From contig OY970069.1 in assembly GCA_963705325.1 (NCBI GenBank), positions 4,199,172 to 4,263,171 of the forward strand: a stretch of DNA of 64,000 bases. The letters run 5' to 3'. A program made the translations under genes and the position numbers. Every line of letters begins with the position of its first letter. Positions within the stretch are counted from its first letter, which is position 1. This document shows positions 759-43,896 of this stretch, one piece after another. Source of the DNA: an uncultured Alphaproteobacteria bacterium (lineage in GTDB: Bacteria; Pseudomonadota; Alphaproteobacteria; ATCC43930; CGMCC-115725). The notes under the pieces are model-generated. The model made no database searches. It saw only the letters and a list, made by a program, of their open reading frames with translations, and was not told where the DNA came from.

Positions 759-1554
759 TCGGGCCTTTTGGCTGGCAGATGGCACGGCTCGAATCCGCCC
801 GAATAAACGCGACAATATCGGCAACGGGGCCATTGCCGGCGTATTTTGCGGCGATCTCATCGACGCGCTCGACCAGCGTGCCTTCGTCGGAAAACAGGAA
901 TTGGTAGGCGGTGCGCAGCCCGCTGATATCCTCACGGGTGAAGCCGCTACGCTGCATGCCCACGATATTGATGCCGGAAAGCCGGGCCCGATCGCCCGTC
1001 GCCTGACCGTAGGGAATCACGTCGCGGACCACGGCGGAGAGGCCGCCCACCATCGCATAGCGGCCGATCCGACAGAACTGATGGATAGCGCTGAGGCCAC
1101 CCAGGATCGCATGGTCTTCGATCACCACGTGGCCCGCGAGCGTCGCGTTGTTCGCCATCACCACGCCGTCACCGACCTGGCAGTCGTGAGCGATGTGGAC
1201 GCCGACCATGAACAGCGAGTTGTCGCCGACGCGCGTCACCATCCCCCCGCCGGCTGTACCCGGGTTCATCGTCACATATTCGCGGATCGTGTTATTGCTG
1301 CCGATCTCGAGCGATGACGCTTCGCCGCGGTACTTGAGATCCTGCGGTTCGAAGCCGATCGAGGCAAAAGGAAAGATGCGCGTTCCGGCGCCGATCGTTG
1401 TTCGTCCTTCGACCACGACATGGGCGCGCAAACTGACGCCAGGGCCGAGCACAACATGCTCGCCGACGACGCAATACGGCCCGATCACGACATCGTCAGC
1501 TAGCTGCGCACCCGGCGCGATGATCGCTGTGGGATGGATCTTGGGCATCGTCAT
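748..1554 (-). CDS. lpxA: acyl-ACP--UDP-N-acetylglucosamine O-acyltransferase
   Basis: 268 aa with hexapeptide repeats. N-terminus IHPTAIIAPGAQLADDVVIGPYCVVGEHV is LpxA-like. Sits in the lpxD-fabZ-lpxA context. Confidence 0.95.
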   Translation of the reverse strand: MTMPKIHPTAIIAPGAQLADDVVIGPYCVVGEHVVLGPGVSLRAHVVVEGRTTIGAGTRIFPFASIGFEPQDLKYRGEASSLEIGSNNTIREYVTMNPGTAGGGMVTRVGDNSLFMVGVHIAHDCQVGDGVVMANNATLAGHVVIEDHAILGGLSAIHQFCRIGRYAMVGGLSAVVRDVIPYGQATGDRARLSGINIVGMQRSGFTREDISGLRTAYQFLFSDEGTLVERVDEIAAKYAGNGPVADIVAFIRADSSRAICQPKGPNGG

Positions 1555-1559
1555 TCGAC

Positions 1560-2030
1560 CTAGTGGTCGAGGATCATAGCCGCGAATACGGCTTCCGCGT
1601 GCAGCTGGCCATCGACCTCCGCGCGGCCTTCGAATTTCCAGACATTGCCCCGATTGCGTATCTTCGTAACGTGAATGTGCAGCCTATCTCCCGGAAATAC
1701 CGGGCGCCGGAAGCGGGCATTATCGATGCTCATGAAATAGACCAGCTTGCGCTCCCATTCCGGACCCAGCGTGTGAACGACGAGCACGGCCGCGGTCTGC
1801 GCCATCGCTTCCACGATCAACACACCGGGCATCACGGGGCGTTCGGGGAAATGGCCGCGAAAGTAGTATTCTTCCGGCGAGACCATCTTGATCCCCGTCG
1901 CTCGCTCATTCTTCGCGACGTCGACAACCTTATCGATGAGCAAGAACGGGTCGCGATGAGGAATCATCTGCATGATCCGCTCGCGATCGAGTTCCAACAA
2001 ATCCCCCGCTTCGGAAGCGGATTCAATCAT
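1560..2030 (-). CDS. fabZ: 3-hydroxyacyl-ACP dehydratase FabZ
   Basis: [12 protein letters not shown] and GHFP motifs. Start trimmed to the ATG at 2030, which forms an ATGA overlap with the lpxD stop. Confidence 0.95.
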
Positions 2031-3052
2031 GAGCCGTCTTTCTTGCGAGCGAGGCGTTGCAGGATCGCGATCTGCCGCATCCACGTGGTTAGCGGCACCA
2101 CCGGTATACCGCCGACCGTCGCCCCGGCCTCGACATCGCGAAACACGCCAGAGTTCGCCGCTATGCGAGCGCCGTCGCCGACGTGCACGTGCCCGGTAAG
2201 GCCTGCCTGCCCGCCAATCATCACAAAATCCCCTAAACGGGTACTACCCGCGATACCGACCTGCCCGGCCAGGACGCATCCTCGCCCGACAACGACATTG
2301 TGCCCAATTTGCACCAGATTATCGATCTTAGTGCCCTCGCCGATTACCGTATCGTGCCCCGAGCCGCGGTCAATTGCCGTGTTAGCGCCGATATCGACAT
2401 CGTCGCCTATGACAACACGGCCAAGCTGCGGAACCATGACCGGACCTGACCTATCTGGCGCGAAGCCGAACCCTGGTTGTCCAATCCGCACGCCAGGATG
2501 GAGCACCACTCGTGATCCAATCAAACAATGGCTGATCGTCACATTGGCGCCAATCCGGCAATCGTCGCCGATCTCGACGTTGGATCCAATCGCGCTATTG
2601 GCGCCGATCTGGCAGCGCGCTCCCAATCGCACCCCCGCCTCGATCACGACATTGGCGGCGATTTCACAATCAGCCGGTACATTGGCCGATGGATCGATGA
2701 TCGCCGAGGGCGCGCGCCCCGGAATCACCGGCGGAGTGGGATAAAAGGCTTCCGCGGCTAAGGCAAACGCCTTATAGGGATCGGCCGCGATCAGAAGCGC
2801 CATGCCCGGAGGCGCCCGCGCGGCAAATCGCTCGGCGGCGAATGCCGCACCCGCCCGCGATGCGGCGAAAGCCTCAACATATTTAAGGTTGGCGAGGAAT
2901 GTCACGTCGCTGGGCCCGGCGGTTTCGAGCGGTGCAACGTCCTCAATGGTCCGATCCCCGACAGCCGGATCGGCAAGCTTCGCACCACCGATCGCCGCCA
3001 AAGCCTTGAGCGAGAACGGTCCAGCACGGTCGAAGAAACGAGGGTCAGCCAT
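2027..3052 (-). CDS. lpxD: UDP-3-O-acylglucosamine N-acyltransferase
   Basis: 341 aa with an LpxD N-terminal domain followed by left-handed beta-helix hexapeptide repeats. Confidence 0.95.
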
Positions 3053-3085
3053 ATGCGCGCACGCCCGTAAACGAAGGCGGGAGCG

Positions 3086-3790
3086 CTATTTCTTCTTAGG
3101 CGGCGCGGGCTTTGGCGGCGCCGGTGCCGGCTTCGCCGGGGCTGGCGGAGTCGTCTGATCCGGAGCATTAGCAGCAACGGGAGTGACGAAGGTTACGTCC
3201 AGCGTTGGCATCTGCTCGTCGAGCTTCTGCAAAACCTGATCGGTAACGTCGAATCCCTGATCGAACAGCACCAACTCGCTGCGCTGAAACACGAGGTTGA
3301 CTTTTCGATCCTTGGCAATGTCCGTGATGATCTTGACCATCACCTCCTGGATCTTCTGAAGCGCATCAGCATTCGATCGTTCCAGCGCCTGACGCTTGGC
3401 CTGCACGTCACGGTCGAGTTCGTTGACCTTGGCCTGGAAGTCGCGGCCTTTGGCGGCAAGCTGATCAGCTGACAGGGTCGCCTGTTGACGCTGCAGCTGG
3501 TCGCGCTCCTGGCGCAAGGCCTCTTCTTTATGTGAGATGTCCTTGGCGTATTCGGCTCGCTTCGCCTCGATCTGCTGCCGAACCATCTTGGCTGCCTTCG
3601 AGTTTTGCAGCAGTGCCTGAACGTCCACCACCATGATGGATATAGTCTGCGGCGCCGCTGGCGGGGTGGTTGCCGCAGGTGCGGGCGGAGTGGGCTGAGC
3701 GGGGGCTTGCTGCGCCAGCGCACCACCGACGCTGCAGCAAAGACCGAACAGGCCAACCAGCACGGCGAGCCGAGCACGCATCACGACCAT
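3086..3790 (-). CDS. skp: OmpH/Skp family periplasmic chaperone with Pro/Ala-rich tails
   Basis: Signal peptide and a coiled-coil KAEYAKDI...QRQQATLS core. Lies between bamA and lpxD. The C-terminal tail is PAPAKPAPAPPKPAPPKKK. Confidence 0.8.
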   Translation of the reverse strand: MVVMRARLAVLVGLFGLCCSVGGALAQQAPAQPTPPAPAATTPPAAPQTISIMVVDVQALLQNSKAAKMVRQQIEAKRAEYAKDISHKEEALRQERDQLQRQQATLSADQLAAKGRDFQAKVNELDRDVQAKRQALERSNADALQKIQEVMVKIITDIAKDRKVNLVFQRSELVLFDQGFDVTDQVLQKLDEQMPTLDVTFVTPVAANAPDQTTPPAPAKPAPAPPKPAPPKKK

Positions 3791-3815
3791 TGCAACCTCT
3801 TAAGCAAAAGCGGGA

Positions 3816-6329
3816 TCAAAACTTCGTGCCGAAACTTACTCTGAAGAACTGCGTCTTATCAAAAGACTCCCGCTTGAGCGGTACCCCCAAATCGAGCCGT
3901 ACCGGCCCCACAGGCGAGGCCCAAGATATCCCGATGCCGGTTGACACTCGCAAAGCCGCTGTATCGACAACCTGCGGCTGAACTGCGGTATTTGCCAACG
4001 CAAGCTGAGTAGGGGTCAAGACCAAGTTCTTTTGGTCGTTCGACCACAACGTACCGAAATCGGACCACACGCGGCCGGTAATCCCGAGTTCCTTCGGTAG
4101 GCCGAGCGGCACGCCTAGCTGGACGGACCCGGCAAAGTACTTGTTGCCGCCGAGTGCGTCCTGCGAGGTAAGGTCGCGCGGCCCGATCCCGGCAGGTTCG
4201 AAGCCGCGCAGGTTGTCGCCGCCGACAAAGAAGCGATCCTGCAGCAGCACCTTCTGGCCGCCCCAACCAAAAACGTCGCCTGCCTCGCCGGTGAAGCTCA
4301 ACACCCAGCCGGGAGCGACCGAATAGTAATAGCCGGCGCTGATCTTGCTACGCAGGTACTGCACGCCAAAGCCGACACCCGCGAAATCATTTCCGAGCGA
4401 AGCAAACCACCCGCTCGTCGGATCAATACGGTTGTCGCGCCGGTCATAGAGCAGCACTTGGCCGATTGACGAGGTGTAGTGGGTTCCCTGTTGCAGCAAT
4501 ATGAAGAGCGCGGCGTTCGATTGAACATTCGTGATGTCGTCCGACCGAACCGCATATTTGAGGGTCTGGCGTAGATACTCAGTGAGCTGGTACCCGGCGC
4601 GCAGCGCACCGCCATAAGAAAATTGCTGGTAGGCCGGCTGTACGCCCGAGAAGAATGACGCGGTCGGGCTGGTCTTGACCTCGAAGAGGTCGAAGCCCGC
4701 CGCCACGTTCGAATCGAGGAAATACGGCTCGGTAAAGCTAAGATCGACTTGCTGAGAATGGAACGACACGACGGTTCCGACGCGCAAATCCTGACCGCGA
4801 CCGAGAAAATTGTGCTCGCGCACGGTAATATCGGCGAGCGGACCGTCGGTGGTCGAAAAACCAGCGCCAAGTGACAGTTCGCCGGTCGATTGCTCCTCGA
4901 CCTCGACCGTCACCACGGTCTTGTCCGGCGCGGAGCCTTGCGTGGTATTGGTCTCCACCTTTTTGAAGAAGCCGAGGTTCTTGATGCGGTCCTTGGAGCG
5001 CTGCAGTTTGTTGGCGTTGAACGCATCACCCTCGACGAGCCGCATCTCGCGACGGATCACCTTGTCGAGCGTGCGCACGTTACCGTTGATGTCGATGCGC
5101 TCGACATAAACTTGCGGCCCCTCCTGCACGTTGAAGGTGATGTCGATCGTACGATCGTCACGGTTGCGAGTAATCTGGGGCTTCACCTCGACAAACGCGT
5201 AACCCTTGCTGCCGAGCGCGTCGGTCAACACCGCGATCGTGTGCTCGACCGCCGCGGCGTCGTACCAATCGCCGGACTGAACCGTCAGGAGCGGCATCAC
5301 CGCATCCTTCGGCAGGTCCTTCAGCTTGATGTCGACATCGACTTTGCCGAATTTGTAACGCACGCCCTCATCGACGGTGAACGTTACGATAAATCCATCG
5401 CGCTCGGGGGTCAGCTCGGCCACTGCCGAGACTACCCGGAAATCGGCGTAGCCCTCGCTCAGATAGTATTTGCGCAGCAACTCGCGGTCGTAGGTAATGC
5501 GGTCCGGGTCGTAAGTGTCGGCGTTGGAGAAGAAGCGGTACCAGCGGCTCTCCTTGGTATCGATCACCCCACGCAGCGTTGAATCGCTGAACTCAGTATT
5601 GCCGACGAAGTTGATGCTGCGCACACCCGTTGACGGACCTTCGTTGATCTCGAAGACAAGGTCGACGCGGTTCTCCGATAATTGGATAATCTTCGGCTCC
5701 ACCGTCGCGGCGAAGCGTGCGTGGCGGCGATAGAGGTTCAGGATGCGCTGCACGTCGTTCTGCACACGCGTGCGCGTGTAGACCACACGTGGGCGCAATT
5801 GAATTTCGCTGTTGAGTTCCTTGTCCGACAGCTTCGAATTACCCTCGAAGGCGATCCGGTTGATGATCGGGTTTTCGACCACGCGGACGATCAGCACGCT
5901 TCCCTGACGGTCGAGTTTTACATCCGCGAACAATCCGGTGGCGAACAGCGCCTTTCCCGAGGCATCGACGCGCTCCGGATCAAAAGGGTCGCCGGCTTTC
6001 ACCAGTATGTAGGAGTAAATCGTCTCCGGCTCGATGCGCTGCAAGCCCTCGATCTTGATGTCGGAGATCGTTCCGTAGTTGGGCGCTGACACCGGCCGCG
6101 GCGCCACAGGAGGGGCAGTATGATGAACGATCCGTCTTGGCTGCGGAGGTGGCGGAAGCGGCGCGGGTTGGACCTGCGCGGGCGGTGGTGGCGGCGCGGG
6201 CGGCGGTGTCGGAGCGGGCGGCGCAACCAGCTCTGCGAGCGCCGGTAGGCTTAGGGCGACCGCAACTGCCGCAGCGGCAATCGGGGCCAGCCAATGCTTC
6301 CTTGCCCGCTGAAACTGCAAAACCCCCAC
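3816..6329 (-). CDS. bamA: outer membrane protein assembly factor BamA
   Basis: 837 aa with POTRA repeats and a C-terminal beta-barrel ending in F. A Pro-rich insert follows the signal peptide. Confidence 0.95.
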   Translation of the reverse strand: MGVLQFQRARKHWLAPIAAAAVAVALSLPALAELVAPPAPTPPPAPPPPPAQVQPAPLPPPPQPRRIVHHTAPPVAPRPVSAPNYGTISDIKIEGLQRIEPETIYSYILVKAGDPFDPERVDASGKALFATGLFADVKLDRQGSVLIVRVVENPIINRIAFEGNSKLSDKELNSEIQLRPRVVYTRTRVQNDVQRILNLYRRHARFAATVEPKIIQLSENRVDLVFEINEGPSTGVRSINFVGNTEFSDSTLRGVIDTKESRWYRFFSNADTYDPDRITYDRELLRKYYLSEGYADFRVVSAVAELTPERDGFIVTFTVDEGVRYKFGKVDVDIKLKDLPKDAVMPLLTVQSGDWYDAAAVEHTIAVLTDALGSKGYAFVEVKPQITRNRDDRTIDITFNVQEGPQVYVERIDINGNVRTLDKVIRREMRLVEGDAFNANKLQRSKDRIKNLGFFKKVETNTTQGSAPDKTVVTVEVEEQSTGELSLGAGFSTTDGPLADITVREHNFLGRGQDLRVGTVVSFHSQQVDLSFTEPYFLDSNVAAGFDLFEVKTSPTASFFSGVQPAYQQFSYGGALRAGYQLTEYLRQTLKYAVRSDDITNVQSNAALFILLQQGTHYTSSIGQVLLYDRRDNRIDPTSGWFASLGNDFAGVGFGVQYLRSKISAGYYYSVAPGWVLSFTGEAGDVFGWGGQKVLLQDRFFVGGDNLRGFEPAGIGPRDLTSQDALGGNKYFAGSVQLGVPLGLPKELGITGRVWSDFGTLWSNDQKNLVLTPTQLALANTAVQPQVVDTAALRVSTGIGISWASPVGPVRLDLGVPLKRESFDKTQFFRVSFGTKF

Positions 6330-34931: not shown

Positions 34932-35600
34932 TTAGACCGCCGGGGCCTTCAGCACCTTCATATCAGGCGCCTTGTGCAAGGTCGCTTCGGTCTTTTGCTG
35001 CAAGGTGTCGAAATCGACGTCTTCGACCATCTCTCGCACGACGAAACCCCGCGCGGTCACGTCGATCACCGCAAAGTCGGTGTAGATGCGCCGAACGACC
35101 CGAGACGCGGTCAGCGGATAGTGACACTGCTTGCGCAGTCGGGGCGCGCCGTCGCGCGTCATATGCTCGACCAGCACACGGATTTCCCTGGCGCCGACCG
35201 CCAAATCCATCGCCCCGCCAACCCCGGGCGGAAAGGTCGGATCGTCTGTCGTCCAGTTGGCGAGGTCGCCGTTTTCCGCCACCTCGAAGGCTCCGAGCAG
35301 CGCCAGGTCGAGATGCCCGCCGCGGATCATCAGGAACGAGTTGGTGTGGTGGACGTAGCTCCCGCCAGTCAACAGCGTCACCGGCTGCTTGCCGGCGTTG
35401 ACGAGGTCGAGATCGACCTCGTTGGCGCCCGGAGCCGGGCCGACGCCAAGGACTCCATTCTCGCTCTGGAGGACGATCTCGCGCCCCTCGGGCAGCACGT
35501 CGGCAACGAGGGTCGGCAGACCGATGCCAAGGTTGACGTAAACCCCGTCAGCGAGGTCTTGCGCGGCGCGCCAGGCGATCTGTTTGCGGCTGAGCGGCAT
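34932..35600 (-). CDS. scoB: 3-oxoacid CoA-transferase subunit B
   Basis: 222 aa containing the ENG motif with the catalytic Glu (LQSENG). Confidence 0.9.
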   Translation of the reverse strand: MPLSRKQIAWRAAQDLADGVYVNLGIGLPTLVADVLPEGREIVLQSENGVLGVGPAPGANEVDLDLVNAGKQPVTLLTGGSYVHHTNSFLMIRGGHLDLALLGAFEVAENGDLANWTTDDPTFPPGVGGAMDLAVGAREIRVLVEHMTRDGAPRLRKQCHYPLTASRVVRRIYTDFAVIDVTARGFVVREMVEDVDFDTLQQKTEATLHKAPDMKVLKAPAV

Positions 35601-35613
35601 GGCGTTTCTCCTG

Positions 35614-36279
35614 CTAGACCGGCACCACGACCATGCGGTCGATGAAGATGCCTGGGGTGACGATGTGCTCGGGGTCGATCTCCCCCAATTCGCAGAATTG
35701 GCGGATCTGGACGATCGACAACTCGGCGGCCTGGGCCATCGTCGGGTTAAAGTTTCGCGCGGACTTATTGTAAGTGAGGTTGCCCCAGCGGTCGCCGCGA
35801 TCCGCCTTCAACAGCGAGACGTCGCCCCGCAGCGGCTTTTCCAGCACATAGCGGCGACCGTCGATCTCGCGCTCTTCTTTGCCCTCGGCGAGGCGCGTCC
35901 CGACCCCCACCGGAGAGAAGAACCCGCCGAGCCCGGCCGCGGCGCAGCGCATCCGTTCGGAAAGGATACCCTGCGGCACCAGCTCCAGCTCGATCTTGCC
36001 TTCCTTGTACAGCTCCTCGAATACGACCGAGCCGGCGCTGCGGGGGAACGAGCAGATGATCTTCCGGATGCGCCCGGCATCCATGAGGCCCGCGAGCCCG
36101 GTGCGGCCGGTCCCGGCATTGTTATTGACGATGGTGAGGTCCTTCGCCCCCTGCTCCAGGAGGGCGCCGTAGAGGGCCTCGGGCGAGCCAGCGCCGCCAA
36201 ACCCACCCGTCAGCACCAGCGCGCCGTCCTTGATGCCCTCGACCGCCTCGGCGAGGCTGCGAACCCGTTTGTCGATCAT
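35614..36279 (-). CDS. scoA: 3-oxoacid CoA-transferase subunit A
   Basis: 221 aa; GGFGGAGSPEAL glycine loop. Confidence 0.9.
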   Translation of the reverse strand: MIDKRVRSLAEAVEGIKDGALVLTGGFGGAGSPEALYGALLEQGAKDLTIVNNNAGTGRTGLAGLMDAGRIRKIICSFPRSAGSVVFEELYKEGKIELELVPQGILSERMRCAAAGLGGFFSPVGVGTRLAEGKEEREIDGRRYVLEKPLRGDVSLLKADRGDRWGNLTYNKSARNFNPTMAQAAELSIVQIRQFCELGEIDPEHIVTPGIFIDRMVVVPV

Positions 36280-36281
36280 CG

Positions 36282-37217
36282 CTAAAACGCCACGTCGTCG
36301 CCGCCCTTGAGGGCGAGCAATTTGCGGGCCTCATCGGGGGTAGCAATTTCCAGCGACAGGTTTTCGAGAATGGTGCGGATGCGAGTGACCTGGTCGGCAT
36401 TGCCCTGGGCGAGTTGGCCCCGGCCGAGCCACAATGAATCCTCAAGGCCGACGCGCACGTTGCCGCCCATGATCGCGCCCATCGTGACGAACGGCATCTG
36501 GTGGCGCCCGGCGGCGAGGATCGACCAGGCGTAATCGTCGCCGAACAGCTTGTCGGCGATCTTCTTCATGTGGACGAGGTTCTCATGGTCGGCGCCGATG
36601 CCGCCGAGGATGCCGAAGATCGTCTGGATAAAGAGCGGCGGCTTCAACAACCCGCGATCGACGAAATGCGCCAAGTTGTAGAGATGACCGACATCGTAAC
36701 ACTCATGCTCGAACCGTGTGCCGCATTCCTCGCCCAGCCGCTTCAGCACCTTTTCGATGTCGGCAAAGGTGTTGCGGAAGATGAAATCGCGCGTCATCTC
36801 CAGCGCCTTCGGCTCCCAGTCGTATTTCCATTCCTTGTAGCGGTCGAGCATCGGGTATAGCCCGAAATTCATCGACCCCATGTTCATCGAGCACATCTCC
36901 GGCCTGGCGCGCAGCGGTGCCGCCAGCCGCTCCTCGAGCGTCATGCCGTGCCCGCCGCCGGTAGTGATGTTGACGACGGCGTTGGTCGCCTGTTTGATCC
37001 GCGGCAGGAACTGCATGAAAACGTCAGGATCGGGAGTGGGTCGCCCGTCCTTGGGGTCACGCGCGTGCAGATGCAGGATCGCGGCGCCGGCCTCCGCTGC
37101 CGCGATAGCGTCGCGAGCCACCTCGTCGGGGGTGAGCGGCAAATAGGGGCTCATCGTCGGGGTGTGGATCGAGCCGGTCACCGCGCAGGTAATGATGACT
37201 TTGCTTTTCAACGGCAT
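36282..37217 (-). CDS. beta-keto acid cleavage enzyme (BKACE/DUF849, 3-keto-5-aminohexanoate cleavage enzyme family)
   Basis: 311 aa; ITCAVTGSIHTPTMSPYLP...HLHARDP..GRPT is typical BKACE. Confidence 0.85.
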   Translation of the reverse strand: MPLKSKVIITCAVTGSIHTPTMSPYLPLTPDEVARDAIAAAEAGAAILHLHARDPKDGRPTPDPDVFMQFLPRIKQATNAVVNITTGGGHGMTLEERLAAPLRARPEMCSMNMGSMNFGLYPMLDRYKEWKYDWEPKALEMTRDFIFRNTFADIEKVLKRLGEECGTRFEHECYDVGHLYNLAHFVDRGLLKPPLFIQTIFGILGGIGADHENLVHMKKIADKLFGDDYAWSILAAGRHQMPFVTMGAIMGGNVRVGLEDSLWLGRGQLAQGNADQVTRIRTILENLSLEIATPDEARKLLALKGGDDVAF

Positions 37218-37247: not shown

Positions 37248-38291
37248 TCAGCGCGGCGGTGTCGCCGCGACCCCGCCGCGCAATTCGTGGACGACGACGC
37301 CGAGCCGACGCGGCGGCGGAGCCAACCACAGGGGATGGGTAAGGCTGGTGCCAACGTCGCTTTCGCCAGCCTGCCAGCGCCGCATCAGCGAAGCGGACGA
37401 GAAATCCGCCATCTTTGCCGGAAGATCAGCGCCAGCGCCTTCGTGCACGAGGCGCAGAATTGTCATCGTCGCCTCGCTCGCCTCGGCGAGACATTTTCTG
37501 ATCTCGGGGTCGCGGCGCAAGCCCGCGGGGAGGCGCTCGCCCAGCAGCGCAATCATCCGCCGCAAATCGTGGTTGCGCCGCATCGCGGCGATCTCGCGCG
37601 CTGAGCGGCTGATCCCGCCACGCGGGCCCGGCTGCGGGTCGTAACCATCTATAACAAAGCATAGCGTGTCGGCGGGGCGGGCATCGTCGAGCGGTGCGAC
37701 TGACACCGCACTGCCGCCATAGCGCTGTCCGTCGATGGTAATCGGCGCGAGGCCAGGTAAGGCGGTGCTCGCAAGCACATGCTCAATTCCGAGCACGTGG
37801 CGATCGTTGTCGAATAAGGTTTCGGCGCCGGTGTCGAGATTGGCGGCGCCAAGCACGACGCGCACATTGCCCGAGTTGACCCGCTCGAAGTCGACGACCT
37901 CGTCAATCAACTCGCGCAATTCCTCGGCGGAAATGACGGGCCCTCCATGAGGCACAGCGTTGCCCGCACGGCGCCGCGGCGGAAGCGCGCCCAGGACCAG
38001 ATCACGCAATCTTTGCGGCAGCCCGACCGTGCGGCTTATTGCGGCGCGGCGGCTCAGCTCGCGCCAGAACTGGCGCAGCCGGAACGCGCGCTCATGTGGC
38101 AGATTGCCGGCGATAATAACAGCGTTGACCGCGCCGATAGCGCTGCCCGCGATCCAGTTGGGCCTGATCCCCGAATTTTCGAGTGCCGCGTATGCCCCTG
38201 CCTGGTAGGCGCCGAGCGCGCCGCCATCCGACAGCACCAGCGCGATTTGGTTGAAACGAGCCAAATTCTTCTCGGATCGCGCGCGCGCCAA
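37248..38291 (-). CDS. patatin-like protein with degenerate catalytic motifs
   Basis: The patatin fold is recognisable (IALVLSDGGALGAYQAG...IAGSAIGAVNAVIIAGN...ITIDGQRYGGSAVSVAPL). GGG, GxSxG and DGG are all altered. Confidence 0.75.
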   Translation of the reverse strand: MARARSEKNLARFNQIALVLSDGGALGAYQAGAYAALENSGIRPNWIAGSAIGAVNAVIIAGNLPHERAFRLRQFWRELSRRAAISRTVGLPQRLRDLVLGALPPRRRAGNAVPHGGPVISAEELRELIDEVVDFERVNSGNVRVVLGAANLDTGAETLFDNDRHVLGIEHVLASTALPGLAPITIDGQRYGGSAVSVAPLDDARPADTLCFVIDGYDPQPGPRGGISRSAREIAAMRRNHDLRRMIALLGERLPAGLRRDPEIRKCLAEASEATMTILRLVHEGAGADLPAKMADFSSASLMRRWQAGESDVGTSLTHPLWLAPPPRRLGVVVHELRGGVAATPPR

Positions 38292-38366: not shown

Positions 38367-39296
38367 TTAGTTGTTTTTGTCGAAACGCTTAGGCGGAAGG
38401 GATTTGAGGTAGATGGCGATCGCGCGGCGGTCATCATCGGTGAGCCGCGCGGTATTGCGCACGATTTCGGCCATCGACCCGCCGAGAACATCGAAATCCG
38501 GCGTGCCGCCGGTTTCTAGAGCCGTGACGATATCGTCGACGCTCCAGTTGCCGATTCCGGTCTTATCGGGAGTGATATTCGGCGCTCTTTTGCTGGCAAT
38601 GGCATCCTTTGACCCGGCCAACTCGCGGCTCGGATCGGGGACACCGAACCAGGTACGCGGCGTATGGCAGTTCCCGCAATAGCCGACCGTACGGACGAGA
38701 TAGGCGCCGCGCGCGATCATATGATCCTGGGGGACTGGCGGCGGAGACGAACTGGATGCGATTGTCACGCCGACCGCGTCGCGCGCTCGCGCAATCAGAG
38801 CCAGCGAGTTGGCCCTACCCAGGCCTGGCCGCGCCAACGGGGCCAGAGTGTCGAGATAAGCCTTGAGGTCCGCGAGATTAGCATCTGTCAGACGACCGAA
38901 ATAGGGAAATGGGAATGCTGTCACGTACTGCGTGCCATCGGGGGCGATTCCCCAGCGCATCGCCCGCTTGAAATCGGCGAAACTCCAGCCGCCGATGCCG
39001 GTCGCCTTGTCGGGGGTAATGTTCGGCGTAGTGATAATCCCAAACTCGGTGACTAGCGCGCGGCCACCGGCATAAAGCGGGCCGCCATTCTTCCCATCGG
39101 TATGGCAATTGTCGCAACCGGCCGCGGCTGCGAGATAGGCGCCGCGCGAGACCGACGCCGGGTCGGCAACCGCGACAGCGGCCGCCGACACGACAAACGC
39201 GACAGCCAAGAGCAGGGCCCGACGGGAGACGCCCAGCCTAGGAGGGCTCGCTAGGAGGGTCTTTTCAGAGTGAACGTGCTGTGACACCCGCCGCAA
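38367..39296 (-). CDS. dihaem cytochrome c (dehydrogenase cytochrome subunit-like)
   Basis: Two CxxCH sites (CDNCH, CGNCH) and the NITPD..TGIG.WS motif twice. The N-terminus overlaps the upstream gene, so the true start is probably downstream of 39296. Confidence 0.8.
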   Translation of the reverse strand: MRRVSQHVHSEKTLLASPPRLGVSRRALLLAVAFVVSAAAVAVADPASVSRGAYLAAAAGCDNCHTDGKNGGPLYAGGRALVTEFGIITTPNITPDKATGIGGWSFADFKRAMRWGIAPDGTQYVTAFPFPYFGRLTDANLADLKAYLDTLAPLARPGLGRANSLALIARARDAVGVTIASSSSPPPVPQDHMIARGAYLVRTVGYCGNCHTPRTWFGVPDPSRELAGSKDAIASKRAPNITPDKTGIGNWSVDDIVTALETGGTPDFDVLGGSMAEIVRNTARLTDDDRRAIAIYLKSLPPKRFDKNN

Positions 39297-39754
39297 GCGC
39301 CTGGATTCGGAGAGGAGGTGCCCCAGAAATCCCTCGTCATATTACCCGCCGCCGCCTTGATGGCGTCCTTGTCATCACCCTTCAGCACGGCATTGAGTGC
39401 TTCGGCCGCGGTCAAAGCATTCTTGTCCGCCTCGACGAACTTGTCATGATCGGACCAGATCGCCGGCTTCGCAAATGACTTGCCGGGATACGCGTCCAGC
39501 CCGGTTCCCTTCGGAAATAGGTCGGGAATTTTGGCAATCCGAGTTGCCAAATCGGCGCCGGCCGACTGCGCCGCGGCGAGGTCCGCCTTGTCTTCCAGGA
39601 AGGCTCGAATCGTGGCGATGTCCTTGAACTGTGCCTTCATGTGGGCTTGCCGCTCGTCAATGATGCTGGCGTCATCGGAGCGCGCCGCGCCGGCATAGAG
39701 TCCCACCAAGACCACAATCGCGGGAAGAACAATCCATTTGGCCGACTGTTTCAT
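39251..39754 (-). CDS. class II cytochrome c (cytochrome c-prime / c556 family)
   Basis: Signal peptide, helical body and a single C-terminal CGGCH. Confidence 0.8.
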   Translation of the reverse strand: MKQSAKWIVLPAIVVLVGLYAGAARSDDASIIDERQAHMKAQFKDIATIRAFLEDKADLAAAQSAGADLATRIAKIPDLFPKGTGLDAYPGKSFAKPAIWSDHDKFVEADKNALTAAEALNAVLKGDDKDAIKAAAGNMTRDFWGTSSPNPGACGGCHSTFTLKRPS

Positions 39755-39942
39755 GCCTCCCTCTCCCTCCGTTTGGTGAAGGACAGTAGCGGTGTGCCCG
39801 ACGAAAGCAACCGTACTCGAACGCGCTCACGCTCAAGTGAAAATACTCGCTAAACTCGGCTCTCTCGCTTTGTGTTACAGCGCGACTGGGGGACTTTGGA
39901 CATCGCCATGCCTTCGAAGGGCCGGATGAAAAGGAATGTGGC

Positions 39943-41709
39943 GTGACCGCGCCAGCGATCTCGTCGAGCAGCATATGGTCTGAACTTGTCCGGCGTGGGC
40001 CGGCTATCGTGCGCCGACTTCGGCTCGCGAGCGGGCTGATCATGTTCACGTACGTTTTTCTGCATTTTATCAACCACAGCCTCGGGAACATTTCGTTCGA
40101 GGCGATGGAGAGCGGCGCCGTGATTCAGGAGTGGATATGGCGCAGTACCATCGGCACAGTTGCGCTCTACGGTGCGTTCGCGGTCCATTTCTCACTCGCG
40201 TTCTGGGCGCTCTACATCCGCCGCAGTATGCGCATGGGGTGCATCGAGGCGCTCCGACTCGCTCTCGGATTCCTGATCCCCTTACAGCTTTTTCAGCACG
40301 CGCTCGGCTGGCGCCTCGGCTACAGCGCGTTCGACGTCCATTTGCTTTATCGCCACGCTCTCTTCTCCTACTTCACCCTCGACCCGCTTCGGGGGCTTGC
40401 GCAGAGCGCCCTGTTCTGCGTTGCCTGGCTGCACGGGTGCATCGGTCTCTATTTGTGGCTGCGGGTCAAACGGCACTTTCACCGGATAGCGCCGTTTCTG
40501 CTCGTCATCGCCGTCCTGCTGCCGACTGTCGCGGCGCTAGGCGTCTTTCAAGGCGCCCGCCGGGTCGCGGACATGTTCCGCAACGATCCGGCCTTCGCCA
40601 ACAATGTCCGCCAGACGGGAATGCGAAGTCACCCGCAGGACCTCGCCGCGATCCGAGCGATCGAACTGTGGTGTCTAGGCGGATATACCGGCGCGCTCGT
40701 CCTTCTTTTCGCCGCGCGCGGCACCCGCTCGCTTATCGAGCGCCGACGCGGCAGAGTGCGGATTACTTATCCCGACGGGCGCAGTGTGCGCATCCCGAAG
40801 GGGCTGAGCGTGCTCGATGCCAGCCGCCGCGCCGGCATCCCCCATGCTTCGGTCTGCGGCGGCCGGGCACGCTGTACAACCTGCCGAGTGCGCGTGCTGC
40901 TCGGGTCGGAGCACCTGGGACCGCCATCGCCCGAAGAGGCTCGTGTGCTAAGTCCGCTCGGCGCGGATCGCGCGGTGCGGCTCGCGTGTCAACTCAAGCC
41001 AACGACCGATATCAGCGTCTGGCCGCTGCTGCCGCCGGAAATCACCATGCGCGACCAGGACCGCCTCAACTTGGTCGAAACCGGTGCGGAGCGCTTCGTC
41101 GCGATCCTGTTCGTCGATATCCGCTCCTCGACGCAACTGGTCGAAAGCCGTCTGCCCTACGATGTCGTATTCATCCTCAATCGCTTTTTCGAGGCGGTCG
41201 GCAGCGCCATTATCGGAGTTGGCGGCAGGCCCACTCAGTTCATCGGCGACGGCATGATGGCGATTTTCGGCACCGACACTGATGCCGCCGCGGCCTGCCG
41301 ACAGGCGTTGGAAGCAGCTCGCCTGATCGACTGGCACCTGGCCGAGATGAACCGAGCGCTGGCAAACGAGTTGCAGCAGCCGATCGGCTTCGGCATCGGC
41401 ATTCATGCCGGCGAGGTCATCATTGGCACGATGGGCTATCGCGAGCACGCGCAGATGACCGCGATCGGCGAAGCTGTCCACGTCGCCTCGCGGCTGCAAG
41501 AGCTCACCAAGGAATACCGCTGCCAGCTCGTCGTTTCAGACGTCGTTGTGACAACGGCCAGCGTCTCACTCGACGCATGGTCTAGCCATAGCGTTCAGGT
41601 GCGCGGTCTCAGCGCGCCGCTGGTGATCCGGACAATCGACAGCGCGGCGATGCTCGGAGCCTACGATAATCCGGAAAACAACAGCAAATCGCTGCTGACG
41701 GTCACGTGA
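39943..41709 (+). CDS. membrane His-rich 6-TM domain / [2Fe-2S] ferredoxin domain / class III adenylate-guanylate cyclase
   Basis: Six predicted TMs with conserved His (FLHFINHSLG, AVHFSLAFW, LFQHALGW, WLHGCIG). CGGRARCTTCRV...LACQL is a plant-type 2Fe-2S pattern. FVAILFVDIRSST...FIGDGMMAIFG...IHAGEVIIG is the cyclase core. Confidence 0.85.
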   Translation: MTAPAISSSSIWSELVRRGPAIVRRLRLASGLIMFTYVFLHFINHSLGNISFEAMESGAVIQEWIWRSTIGTVALYGAFAVHFSLAFWALYIRRSMRMGCIEALRLALGFLIPLQLFQHALGWRLGYSAFDVHLLYRHALFSYFTLDPLRGLAQSALFCVAWLHGCIGLYLWLRVKRHFHRIAPFLLVIAVLLPTVAALGVFQGARRVADMFRNDPAFANNVRQTGMRSHPQDLAAIRAIELWCLGGYTGALVLLFAARGTRSLIERRRGRVRITYPDGRSVRIPKGLSVLDASRRAGIPHASVCGGRARCTTCRVRVLLGSEHLGPPSPEEARVLSPLGADRAVRLACQLKPTTDISVWPLLPPEITMRDQDRLNLVETGAERFVAILFVDIRSSTQLVESRLPYDVVFILNRFFEAVGSAIIGVGGRPTQFIGDGMMAIFGTDTDAAAACRQALEAARLIDWHLAEMNRALANELQQPIGFGIGIHAGEVIIGTMGYREHAQMTAIGEAVHVASRLQELTKEYRCQLVVSDVVVTTASVSLDAWSSHSVQVRGLSAPLVIRTIDSAAMLGAYDNPENNSKSLLTVT

Positions 41710-42324
41710 TCGGCATGACAATGTGGTTTTTGAAGCCGAGCGGTCGCAGAAGCGGTCGTACCAGGCCTTTAGGTGCGGCAGCCTGGGTCGCTCGATCGGG
41801 TAGTTGAACCAGCGATAGATATGCGTGCCGAGCGCGATCTCGGCCAGCGACAGCGACTGCCCGCCAAGATAGGGCTGGTTCGCGACCGCGTCATCGATGA
41901 TCTCCCAAGCGGTAATGGCGCGGCGCCGCGCCGCTTCGATCGCGGCGGCGTCGCGGGTCTCTGGGGCGGAGCGAATCAGCCCCTGAAGCAACGCGCCCAT
42001 CGGCGCGCCGATGACCGAGAGCTGCCAGTCCATCCAACGCTCGACGTGGGTGCGGGCCGCGAAATCGGCGGGATACAGACTATCGCCGTTCGGGTGCGTA
42101 TTGCACAGATAGCGGCAGATCGTGTTCGATTCCCACATCACCAGGTCGCCTTCGATGACCGTCGGCACCAGCCCGTTGGGGTTCAGCTTCAGATATTCGG
42201 GATCGCGGTTGCCCCCGAACGGGCCGCCGTGATCGACCCGGTCGTATTGGATGTTCAGCTCGGCGCAGGTCCACAGCACCTTTTGCACGTTCGACGATGT
42301 CGTACGGCCCCATATCTTCAGCAT
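41566..42324 (-). CDS. gstB: GstB-like glutathione S-transferase; C-terminus altered by an apparent 1-nt deletion near 41733
   Basis: MLKIWGRTTSSNVQKVLW...NPNGLVPT..WESN. After ..WYDRFCDRSA the frame yields a junk 55-aa tail. The adjacent frame reads FKNHIVMPIT-stop, matching the GstB C-terminus, with its stop at 41702. Confidence 0.8.
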   Translation of the reverse strand: MLKIWGRTTSSNVQKVLWTCAELNIQYDRVDHGGPFGGNRDPEYLKLNPNGLVPTVIEGDLVMWESNTICRYLCNTHPNGDSLYPADFAARTHVERWMDWQLSVIGAPMGALLQGLIRSAPETRDAAAIEAARRRAITAWEIIDDAVANQPYLGGQSLSLAEIALGTHIYRWFNYPIERPRLPHLKAWYDRFCDRSASKTTLSCRSRDRQQRFAVVFRIIVGSEHRRAVDCPDHQRRAETAHLNAMARPCVE

Positions 42325-42435
42325 CTGAGCCTCCGTATTTGCTGGCGGCATGGAGCCTTAGAATCCGGGCGAGCGCAACCGTCCGCTCGGTGTATAGTTC
42401 GCCCATTCGAGATGCCTCTTTTGGGCAGAGCAGTG

Positions 42436-42690: not shown

Positions 42691-43896
42691 TCAGCGAAGC
42701 TTCGGCAGCTGCAAGAGCTGCCAGACATCGGTCAGCGCGGTGACCAGCGCGTCGATATCCTCGTCGCTGTGCAGCGGCGTCGGGGTTACGCGCAGCCGTT
42801 CGGTGCCGCGAGGCACCGTCGGGTAGTTGATAGGCTGCACATAGACTTGGTGATCGCGCAGTAGCAGGTCGGAGGCCGTCCGGCACATCGCCGCGTCGCC
42901 GACCATTACCGGCACGATATGACTGTCGTTGGCCATGACCGGGATCGATGCCTCCGTCAGGCAACGCTTGACCGTCGCGACGCGCTCCCGCTGCTGGGTC
43001 CGCTCGGCCTGGCTTTCCCTCAGATGCCTCACCGCGGCGAGCGCGCCCGCCGCCAACAGCGGCGGCAGCGACGAGGTGAAGATGAATCCCGGCGCATGGC
43101 CGCGCAAGAAATCGATCATCAGCGACGAGCCGGCGACATAGCCGCCCATCGTGCCGAACGCCTTGGCCAGCGTGCCTTGGATTACCGTCAGGCGGGCAGA
43201 TGCGCCATCGCGCTCGGAAACGCCACCCCCATGATCGCCGTAGAGACCGACGGCGTGCACTTCGTCGAGATAGGTCATCGCGCCATGACGCTCGGCGACA
43301 TCGCAGATGTCGTTGAGCGGCGCGATGTCGCCGTCCATCGAGTAAACCGACTCGAAGCAGACAAGTTTCGGACGCTCGGAGGGTAATCCCGCCAACAGCT
43401 CCTCGAGATGCGCGACGTCGTTGTGCCGGAAGATGACGCGCTCGGCCCGACTATTGCGGATGCCGGCGATCATCGAGGCATGGTTCATCGCGTCGGACAG
43501 CACCACCATGCCCGGCATGCTGCCGGCAAGGGTCGACAGCGCCGCCTCGTTGGCGACAAAGCCGGAGGTGAAGACGAGCGCCGCCTCGCGTCCGTGCAGA
43601 TCGGCGAGCTCACGTTCCAGCAGCACATGGGCGTGGCTGGTGCCGGAGATGTTGCGTGTGCCGCCAGCGCCCGCGCCACTGCGGCGCATCTCGGCCTCCA
43701 TCGCCGCCAGCACCGCCGGGTGCTGCCCCATGCCGAGATAATCGTTCGAACACCACACCGTGACCTCGGCACCCAAGCGGTGATCGTAGGCGCGGGGGAA
43801 CCGGCCGCGGCGCCGCTCCAGATCGGCGAAGACGCGGTAGCGCCCTTCGCTGTGGAGCGCGTCAAGCCGCTCTTTGAAAAAGGTGTCGAAATCCAT
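42691..43896 (-). CDS. hemA: 5-aminolevulinate synthase
   Basis: [28 protein letters not shown]...[14 protein letters not shown]; 401 aa. Confidence 0.95.

Follow-up and report, generated by a model that had tools for sequence, protein, structure and literature searches.

A probable CyaC-type redox cyclase beside a probably independent cytochrome c operon in an uncultured alphaproteobacterium

The subject of this study is a gene for a putative redox-regulated nucleotide cyclase, found in a 64,000-nucleotide stretch of DNA (the window, in what follows) from an uncultured Alphaproteobacteria bacterium (GenBank assembly GCA_963705325.1, contig OY970069.1, positions 4,199,172 to 4,263,171). The gene occupies positions 39943–41709 of the window on the plus strand and encodes, from a GTG start, a protein of 588 amino acids in which a six-transmembrane (6TM) anchor is followed first by a ferredoxin domain of the [2Fe-2S] kind and then by a class IIIb cyclase domain. 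The best overall explanation, which we hold to be probable, is that the protein is a dihaem-b/[2Fe-2S] redox cyclase of the CyaC type and that it stands beside an independent operon for periplasmic electron carriers. A preliminary description, made from the sequence by itself, had likewise proposed a redox-type cyclase with a candidate haem b anchor and a [2Fe-2S] domain, and this part is supported by the present analysis, with the haem b being probable. It had also joined the cyclase and two adjacent cytochromes c into a single sensing module leading from the periplasm to the cytoplasm, and this second part was not supported by the comparison with other genomes.

Family assignment

A homologue search with the cyclase protein returned 7985 sequences, the nearest named ones being proteins from Stellaceae metagenome-assembled genomes (MAGs). 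When GTDB species were scanned with one genome each, at least 599 relatives were confirmed, and the best 80 loci were used here. Among these, full-length matches with E-values of 1e-134 to 1e-184 were obtained to 79 genome-encoded members, including those of Rhodopseudomonas palustris, Bradyrhizobium and Methylorubrum. The best 80 loci and the metagenomic loci together make up the set of 84 family members that is used for the counts below; more than 80 genomes are represented in it. A set of 51 full-length representatives, which are 31–52% identical to the window cyclase, was also compared. The GTG start and the purine-rich stretch preceding it were found to be kept in the alignment of the relatives.

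Judged by these comparisons, the window cyclase is a member of the described CyaC-type class IIIb family, which is cluster 1 of Beltz et al. 2016 (eLife 5:e13098, PMC4821796). In that work, cluster 1 consists of bacterial class IIIb cyclases in which a ferredoxin separates the membrane anchor from the catalytic domain. The anchors have six transmembrane segments and are similar, at the level of BLAST, to cytochrome b subunits, namely those of fumarate reductase and succinate dehydrogenase; they contain four precisely spaced intramembrane histidines, and two haems were predicted. The window cyclase shares with this cluster, of which R. palustris Q132R4 is an example, the four spaced histidines, the ferredoxin in the middle of the protein and the alpha- and beta-proteobacterial distribution. 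The R. palustris homologue found in our scan (locus L031, E 4e-149, 40% identity) keeps all the ligands. There are also differences. The window cyclase falls in a separate, mostly metagenomic (Stellaceae-like) branch and is at most 53% identical to the members from cultured genomes among the best 80 loci, and at the two active-site positions discussed below it has Gln/His, whereas the sampled R. palustris, Bradyrhizobium and Methylorubrum members have Gln/Asn.

The biochemistry of this family is known from CyaC of Sinorhizobium meliloti (SMc01818). According to the summary of Wissig et al. 2019 (Mol Microbiol 112:16) given by Klein et al. 2023 (PMC10463352), and to the statements on CyaC in PMC9552081, the 6TM domain of this enzyme binds two haem B, and the enzyme also has a [2Fe-2S] cluster. 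The same sources report that CyaC is oxidised and reduced by ubiquinone and that the cyclase activity follows, oxidation by the quinone being activating. The author of the preliminary description was not aware of any biochemically described module of this kind, which in view of Beltz et al. 2016 and of these accounts of CyaC is wrong for the cyclase itself.

In both the window cyclase and CyaC, a 6TM anchor, a [2Fe-2S] ferredoxin and a class III cyclase follow one another in this order, and the second substrate position, 74 residues after the first, is a Thr; the window cyclase has all the His and Cys ligands that are invariant across the family. They differ at the first substrate position, where Lys410 of CyaC is replaced by Gln432, and the window cyclase departs further from the family consensus by having His513 in place of Asn. 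The gene surroundings are also different, since cyaC has as its neighbours cycR, which is a TetR gene, and a LysR gene, whereas the window cyclase is flanked by a cytochrome c operon and a glutathione S-transferase (GST) gene. No S. meliloti relative was found among the best 80 of the at least 599 loci, and a homology search started from one family member of the Rhizobiaceae gave no named Sinorhizobium protein. It can be mentioned as a separate observation that a Pseudolabrys MAG (L064) has two full-length cyclase paralogues in tandem, placed back to back at 1438–3234 and 3235–5082 of that locus.

Ferredoxin domain and membrane anchor

The ferredoxin domain spans residues 278–354 (40774–41004, plus strand) and matches Fer2 (PF00111) with an E-value of 1e-9. 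Its iron–sulfur motif is C305-x5-C311-x2-C314...C349, and the four cysteines, C305, C311, C314 and C349, are the predicted cluster ligands; they are present in 50 of the 51 representatives and in all 84 family members. The motif had been read correctly in the preliminary description, where the domain was called plant-type. This label has to be given up, however, because the best matches in the profile search of the PDB and in Foldseek are ferredoxins of the adrenodoxin, putidaredoxin, ISC-Fdx and NqrF types, with E-values of 1e-13 to 1e-9, while chloroplast ferredoxins match the domain only at E ≥ 0.1. The domain is thus of the adrenodoxin/putidaredoxin kind.

The membrane anchor precedes the ferredoxin and covers residues ~21–268 (40003–40746, plus strand). 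The hydropathy profile of the N-terminus has six hydrophobic segments separated by loops, those on the cytoplasmic side being positively charged. Histidines are located at H41 in the first transmembrane helix (TM1), H82 in TM2, H119 in TM3 and H164 in TM4, and there is an additional one at H45. The first four are invariant, in 51/51 representatives and 84/84 family members, and H45 is present in 50 and 84 of them, respectively. A 6TM domain with conserved histidines in at least four helices, as had been proposed, is therefore confirmed.

The AlphaFold2 model of the anchor is a helix bundle with a predicted local distance difference test (pLDDT) value of 89.8. With the anchor alone as the query, Foldseek gave as best matches the C subunit of the quinol:fumarate reductase (QFR) of Wolinella succinogenes (1e7p_C and 2bs3_C), with TM-scores of 0.51–0.54 and probabilities of 0.97–0.98. 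The C subunit of the Desulfovibrio gigas enzyme ranks next, and no other PDB match comes near a TM-score of 0.5. When the model also contained the ferredoxin, the matches were dominated by ferredoxins. Structurally, the anchor is thus best matched over ~225 columns by QFR subunit C (W. succinogenes FrdC, PDB 1E7P/2BS3; D. gigas, 5XMJ). It differs from FrdC in lacking detectable sequence similarity to it, in having a sixth helix, and in being fused to a signalling output instead of docking to FrdAB. In Pfam, the anchor gave noise only at E ≤ 10. The Pfam and structure predictions that had been recommended for this region have therefore yielded a resemblance in fold to QFR subunit C, and no sequence match in either Pfam or the PDB.

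From the depth of the histidines in the membrane and by analogy, H41 and H119 are predicted to be the ligands of a distal haem b at the periplasmic side, and H82 and H164 those of a proximal haem b at the cytoplasmic side. The pattern would be like that of FrdC, with the outer pair coming from helices 1 and 3 and the inner pair from helices 2 and 4, the ligand helices of FrdC being numbered I/IV and II/V.

An exhaustive search with the anchor alone (residues 1–270) resulted in 1982 cluster representatives at 50% identity. Other outputs on the same anchor were looked for among 49 mid-length relatives; the only domains joined to the anchor there are Fer2 and the cyclase, and these relatives resemble fragments.

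Catalytic domain

The cyclase domain comprises residues ~385–570 (41095–41652, plus strand), with a match to Guanylate_cyc (PF00211) at residues 385–535 (E 8e-15). The active-site residues were assigned by alignment to Cya2 (PDB 2W01, ...VGAQVNLTYR...) and by the family alignments. The metal-binding aspartates are D392 and D436, both of which the preliminary description had recognised. The same alignments bear out its by-eye assignment of a histidine, His513 in GEAVHVASR, to the position of the transition-state Asn. Arg517 is kept, so that the canonical Asn–Arg pair is broken by the Asn-to-His replacement. What had been overlooked is that the adenine-specifying Lys is also replaced, by Gln432. 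The second substrate position is occupied by Thr506, as expected for class IIIb; with regard to this class, the Thr fits while the Lys at the first position is substituted by Gln.

It is important to consider how common these substitutions are in the family. Writing the six positions in order, the signature D-Q-D-T-N-R is found in 54 of the 84 members, including those of R. palustris, Bradyrhizobium and Methylorubrum. D-K-D-T-N-R occurs in 14 members, D-Q-D-T-H-R in 10, counting the window cyclase, and D-H-D-T-N-R in 4. One further Gln-type sequence (L076) ends before the last three positions and can only be read as D-Q-D. Taken together, Gln stands at the Lys position in 65/84 members, R. palustris and Bradyrhizobium included, and since this is the majority, the Lys at the first substrate position is not a defining feature of the family. 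The Gln-type subfamily is dominant among the sampled Bradyrhizobium and Rhodopseudomonas genomes. The His at the Asn position is seen on the Gln background only (10/10), and it is fixed in several lineages.

In CyaC of S. meliloti, the corresponding residues are Lys410 and Thr484, the two of its active-site residues that were available for this comparison, and CyaC with both exchanges, K410A/T484A, is inactive. The pair K410/T484 and the pair Q432/T506 have an identical spacing of 74 residues. For the other position, a precedent with His instead of Asn is the mycobacterial Rv1900c, an active enzyme for which both adenylate cyclase (AC) and guanylate cyclase (GC) activity have been reported (PMC4886424), and Ma1120 has Ala at this position and is active as well (PMC4215837). 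Rv1900c (LipJ, Mycobacterium tuberculosis) is thus similar to the window cyclase in its His, but it differs in being a soluble lipase fusion and in its residues at the substrate positions; the window cyclase has a weak match (E 0.001) to the NCBIfam model for LipJ. Another enzyme, Rv0386, reportedly has a Gln at the Lys position along with a GC side activity (Castro et al. 2005), and we found no further confirmation of this Gln in the literature. To our knowledge, no Gln-type member of the family has been characterised, the only characterised member that we know of being the Lys-type CyaC. On the basis of the conservation pattern, the active site is probably a functional variant, with a nucleotide specificity and a turnover that may differ from those of CyaC.

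The two cytochromes

Divergently from the cyclase gene lie a class II cytochrome c gene (39251–39754, minus strand), coding for a precursor of 167 amino acids, and then a dihaem cytochrome c gene (38367–39296, minus strand), coding for 309 amino acids with a Cytochrom_C match and the two haem motifs CDNCH and CGNCH. This arrangement, which had been described before, is borne out by the open reading frames (ORFs) and by Pfam. The intergenic region between the cyclase and the class II cytochrome gene extends over 39755–39942 and is 188 bp long, a small correction to the 190 bp given previously. Because the two cytochrome ORFs overlap by 46 bp, the two genes probably form one operon.

The 167-residue protein matches Cytochrom_C_2 (PF01322, E 3e-16) and has a signal peptide and a C-terminal CGGCH at residues 154–158. 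Its assignment to the class II family of cytochromes c-prime and c556 thus stands. The family had been brought in for its binding of NO and CO, and for the protein at hand such a gas-binding site is doubtful. In the profile comparison with the PDB, a cytochrome c-prime (1JAF, 6e-17) and a c-556 (1S05, 1e-16) score equally. However, Met39, in the motif RQxxMK, is invariant in seven homologues with 31–61% identity and aligns with Met12 of c-556, while the c-primes have Phe (1JAF, 1CPQ) or Leu (1E83) at this position. The automatic label given to the homologues by the Joint Genome Institute is also 'cytochrome c556'. Owing to the alignment of the invariant Met39 with Met12, which we take to be the axial ligand of c-556 (1S05) although no useful confirmation was found in the literature, the protein is more likely a six-coordinate c-556-like electron carrier than an NO/CO sensor. 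Some c-primes carry a Met at the distal site, and the Met39 evidence against a c-prime is suggestive rather than decisive.

The low-spin c-556 of R. palustris (PDB 1S05) and the window cytochrome have in common the four-helix class II fold and the C-terminal CxxCH, and the LMK motif of c-556, which contains Met12, is aligned with the invariant xMK of the window cytochrome and its relatives. They differ in that the window protein scores no better with c-556 than with true c-primes. Two further observations concern this cytochrome. In the same genomes, its pairwise identities are 31–79%, compared to 65–93% for the patatin-like protein and GST encoded on either side, which means that it evolves much faster, and the window protein has a 10-residue insertion (WGTSSPNPGA) right before the CGGCH.

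The 309-residue protein aligns to residues 33–297 of the 486 residues of 7w2j_C with an E-value of 1.6e-45, and is homologous to haem domains I–II of the trihaem cytochrome subunits found in membrane-bound dehydrogenases for fructose, alcohol and glucose. Since it has only two CxxCH motifs and no dehydrogenase gene is adjacent, it is not a trihaem subunit of the FdhC/AdhB type.

Association of the cyclase with the cytochromes

We now turn to the question of whether the cyclase and the cytochromes belong together. In the relatives that form the immediate clade (66–80% identity), the genes for the patatin, the dihaem cytochrome c, the c556, the divergent cyclase and the GST are all kept, even where the outer flanks differ, although one close relative has lost the intact dihaem gene. 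The patatin and GST genes are kept in the clade as well as the cytochromes are, and because of this equal retention the conservation amounts to ordinary collinearity.

Outside the clade the association disappears. Homologues of either cytochrome within 6 kb were absent at 79 of the 80 scan loci (the best 80 of at least 599), the exception, L006, being a member of the clade. They are also missing near L086 and L087, the closest outgroups of the Gln/His type (47–52% identity), and near the other His513-type cyclases (L008, L028, L043 and L046) no cytochromes were found. A scan for CxxCH in 4 kb on each side of the cyclase revealed no adjacent c-type cytochrome. Two side observations belong here. 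At several Bradyrhizobium loci (L030 9070–9543, L057 8865–9350, L052 9251–9565, and others), a small ORF with one CxxCH is located ~1.5 kb downstream of the cyclase; it has sub-threshold Pfam matches only (Dehyd-heme_bind, Cytochrom_C) and could be a genuine cytochrome c of small size or an ORF that arises spuriously from the high GC content. In L086 (P0122), the closest Gln/His-type outgroup, genes for a 112-residue Fer2 ferredoxin and a 101-residue protein free of Pfam matches are found upstream on the cyclase strand (1237–1575 and 1738–2043).

The opposite case, that is, cytochromes in the absence of the cyclase, was found through the c556-like protein. In L090, L091/L092 and L093, the GST, c556, dihaem and patatin genes lie on one strand with no cyclase, and only ~87 bp separate GST and c556. 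According to BLAST, L090 is colinear with the window at 75–77% identity over 10 kb, while positions 39758–41701 of the window have no counterpart. As judged by the identities of patatin and GST, the three cyclase-less loci fall in three subgroups, each alongside cyclase-bearing loci. This nesting implies three or more independent losses of the cyclase at one junction or, as the less parsimonious reading, as many gains. In sum, the cytochromes adjoin the cyclase only within the immediate clade (at least 66% identity) and persist where it is missing, so that the comparative evidence gives no support to a three-gene module and the cyclase and the cytochrome operon appear to be independent. The survey of synteny in other genomes suggested in the preliminary description has therefore come out largely against the linkage.

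The presence/absence segment covers 39826–41709 and includes the cyclase gene and its 5' region, as delimited by the BLAST comparison with L090 and by the junction sequences. It is bounded by the palindrome yTCAC-N6-GTGAA at 39826–39841 and by TCACGTGA at 41702–41709. At the 3' junction, within TCACGTGA, the stop codon of the cyclase overlaps that of the original GST frame, which is read from the opposite strand; at the 5' junction, TCACGTGA is part of the palindrome. In L001, a direct repeat of ~75 bp from the 3' end of GST is present on both sides of the cyclase (4240–4315 and 6205–6280). These repeats fit either repeated excision by recombination or an insertion that duplicated its target. 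From the sequence comparisons, the cyclase is in this lineage a dispensable presence/absence cassette.

In the intergenic region (39755–39942), a GAAAGCAA box is conserved, and the palindrome CTCACGCTCAAGTGAA is also present. This palindrome has a single occurrence in the window, versus 0.25 expected, and its form yTCAC-N6-GTGAA is kept in 6/7 clade loci. Both elements are also found upstream of c556 in the cyclase-less loci, where the palindrome is located at the GST stop. A shared operator for the cyclase and the cytochromes was for this reason rejected, and the two elements, being present without the cyclase, belong to the promoter of the cytochromes or to the terminator region of GST. The palindrome is unlike what we take to be the consensus sites of CRP (TGTGA-N6-TCACA), FNR and Clr. 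No structured RNA was detected in the region with Rfam at E ≤ 1.

Proposed mechanism and alternatives

On the reading of the protein as a CyaC-type cyclase, a mechanism can be outlined, in which the chemistry is taken by homology from S. meliloti CyaC and the anatomy from the present analysis. The cyclase would act as a homodimer, with each 6TM anchor holding two haem b, the distal one bound by H41/H119 and the proximal one by H82/H164. Ubiquinone or ubiquinol would oxidise or reduce the haems of the anchor, and the electrons would equilibrate with the [2Fe-2S] cluster at C305, C311, C314 and C349. The redox state would then be passed on to the cyclase domain, where, going by CyaC, oxidation by the quinone would correspond to activation. 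The product would most likely be cAMP, the activity and the preference for ATP being assumed by analogy.

A number of observations weigh against this picture. The E-values of the Foldseek matches to QFR subunit C are weak (0.6–1.3, with probabilities of 0.77–0.98), and the anchor has no sequence match to FrdC or SdhC in the PDB, searched both with the single sequence and with a profile, or in Pfam. The likeness to CyaC was judged from architecture and published residue numbers, with the R. palustris and Bradyrhizobium homologues standing in for it in the sequence comparison. Furthermore, Gln432 replaces precisely the Lys whose mutation, along with that of Thr484, inactivates CyaC, and the block of cytochrome and cyclase genes is retained within the clade while the outer flanks change.

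This last point leads to the alternative that the distal haem receives electrons, or a signal from NO/CO, by way of the class II and dihaem cytochromes, such that the three genes constitute one sensing module with a cyclic-nucleotide output. The divergent genes do share the 188-bp intergenic region, their block persists at 66–80% identity in spite of differing outer flanks, and the distal haem is predicted to lie near the periplasmic face. The patatin and GST genes, however, are retained equally, neither cytochrome is found within 6 kb at 79 of the best 80 of at least 599 loci or at L086 and L087, and the His513-type cyclases of L008, L028, L043 and L046 have no cytochromes nearby either. Three relatives from three subgroups have GST, c556, dihaem and patatin genes with ~87 bp in place of the cyclase, and the conserved intergenic motifs occur there without it. 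In addition, the alignment of Met39 with Met12 argues against an open gas-binding site. We therefore regard a joint module as improbable. The other alternative concerns the catalytic site, in that Gln432/His513 could make the protein a guanylate or promiscuous cyclase, or else a redox protein that keeps the cyclase fold but has weak or no activity. Two of the six canonical residues do depart from the class III consensus, the one at the Lys position from CyaC as well, the K410A/T484A variant of CyaC is inactive, and Rv1900c, with His at the Asn position, is reported to show both AC and GC activity (PMC4886424). Rv0386, with its reported Gln and GC side activity, would point the same way. Nevertheless, both metal aspartates, Thr506 and Arg517 are intact, and Gln being the majority residue (65/84), with His on Gln only (10/10), is the pattern of a selected functional site rather than one of decay. 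A GC signature of the Glu/Cys type is not present. This second explanation is, in our judgement, unlikely.

One can also speculate, with a similarly low expectation, that the cyclase has been rewired in the Stellaceae-like clade, so that the distal haem would report the pool of periplasmic cytochrome c and not that of quinone, and/or that the Gln/His pair would shift the product to cGMP or a mixture.

Returning to the CyaC-type reading, the family is of interest because it ties the respiratory chain's redox state directly to the synthesis of a second messenger. It is among the few class III cyclases with a demonstrated sensory role for a 6TM domain, a role already established by S. meliloti CyaC. 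What the present locus adds is that most of the sampled members have Gln and not Lys, with a minority adding His, which means that the characterised Lys-type enzyme does not settle the nucleotide specificity of most other members. It also adds the case of a cyclase gene that behaves as a clean presence/absence cassette flanked by the TCACGTGA repeat. Finally, the locus cautions against inferring function from a divergent gene pair in a collinear neighbourhood.

Neighbouring genes

The GST gene downstream of the cyclase (41566–42351, minus strand, as read) has a 1-nt frameshift near 41737 when it is compared with all relatives. The C-terminus that corresponds to theirs (...GFKNHIVMPIT*) is found in another frame, in which the stop would be at 41702–41704, and the ORF as read is 45 codons longer, ending at 41566 and running antisense into the 3' end of the cyclase gene. 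The frameshift is due to a real mutation or else to an error in the assembly.

Further along, hemA, coding for 5-aminolevulinate synthase, is found at 42691–43896 on the minus strand (TIGR01821, 641 bits versus a cutoff of 339), 1 kb from the three haem-protein genes. In Alphaproteobacteria, haem synthesis begins with this enzyme. Its proximity is probably plain synteny, because hemA adjoins GST also in the cyclase-less L090.

On the other side of the cytochromes, three ORFs on the minus strand (34932–36279, 36282–37217 and 37248–38291) are part of the flank. In this flank, there are a 3,5-dioxohexanoate:acetyl-CoA acetone transferase (NF053538, scoring 554 bits, with the cutoff at 430), two ORFs for which the counterparts at the same place in relatives have CoA_trans, and a patatin-like lipase with DUF3734, to which the relatives add a polyhydroxybutyrate depolymerase. 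The flank resembles a gene neighbourhood for the catabolism of ketones or polyesters.

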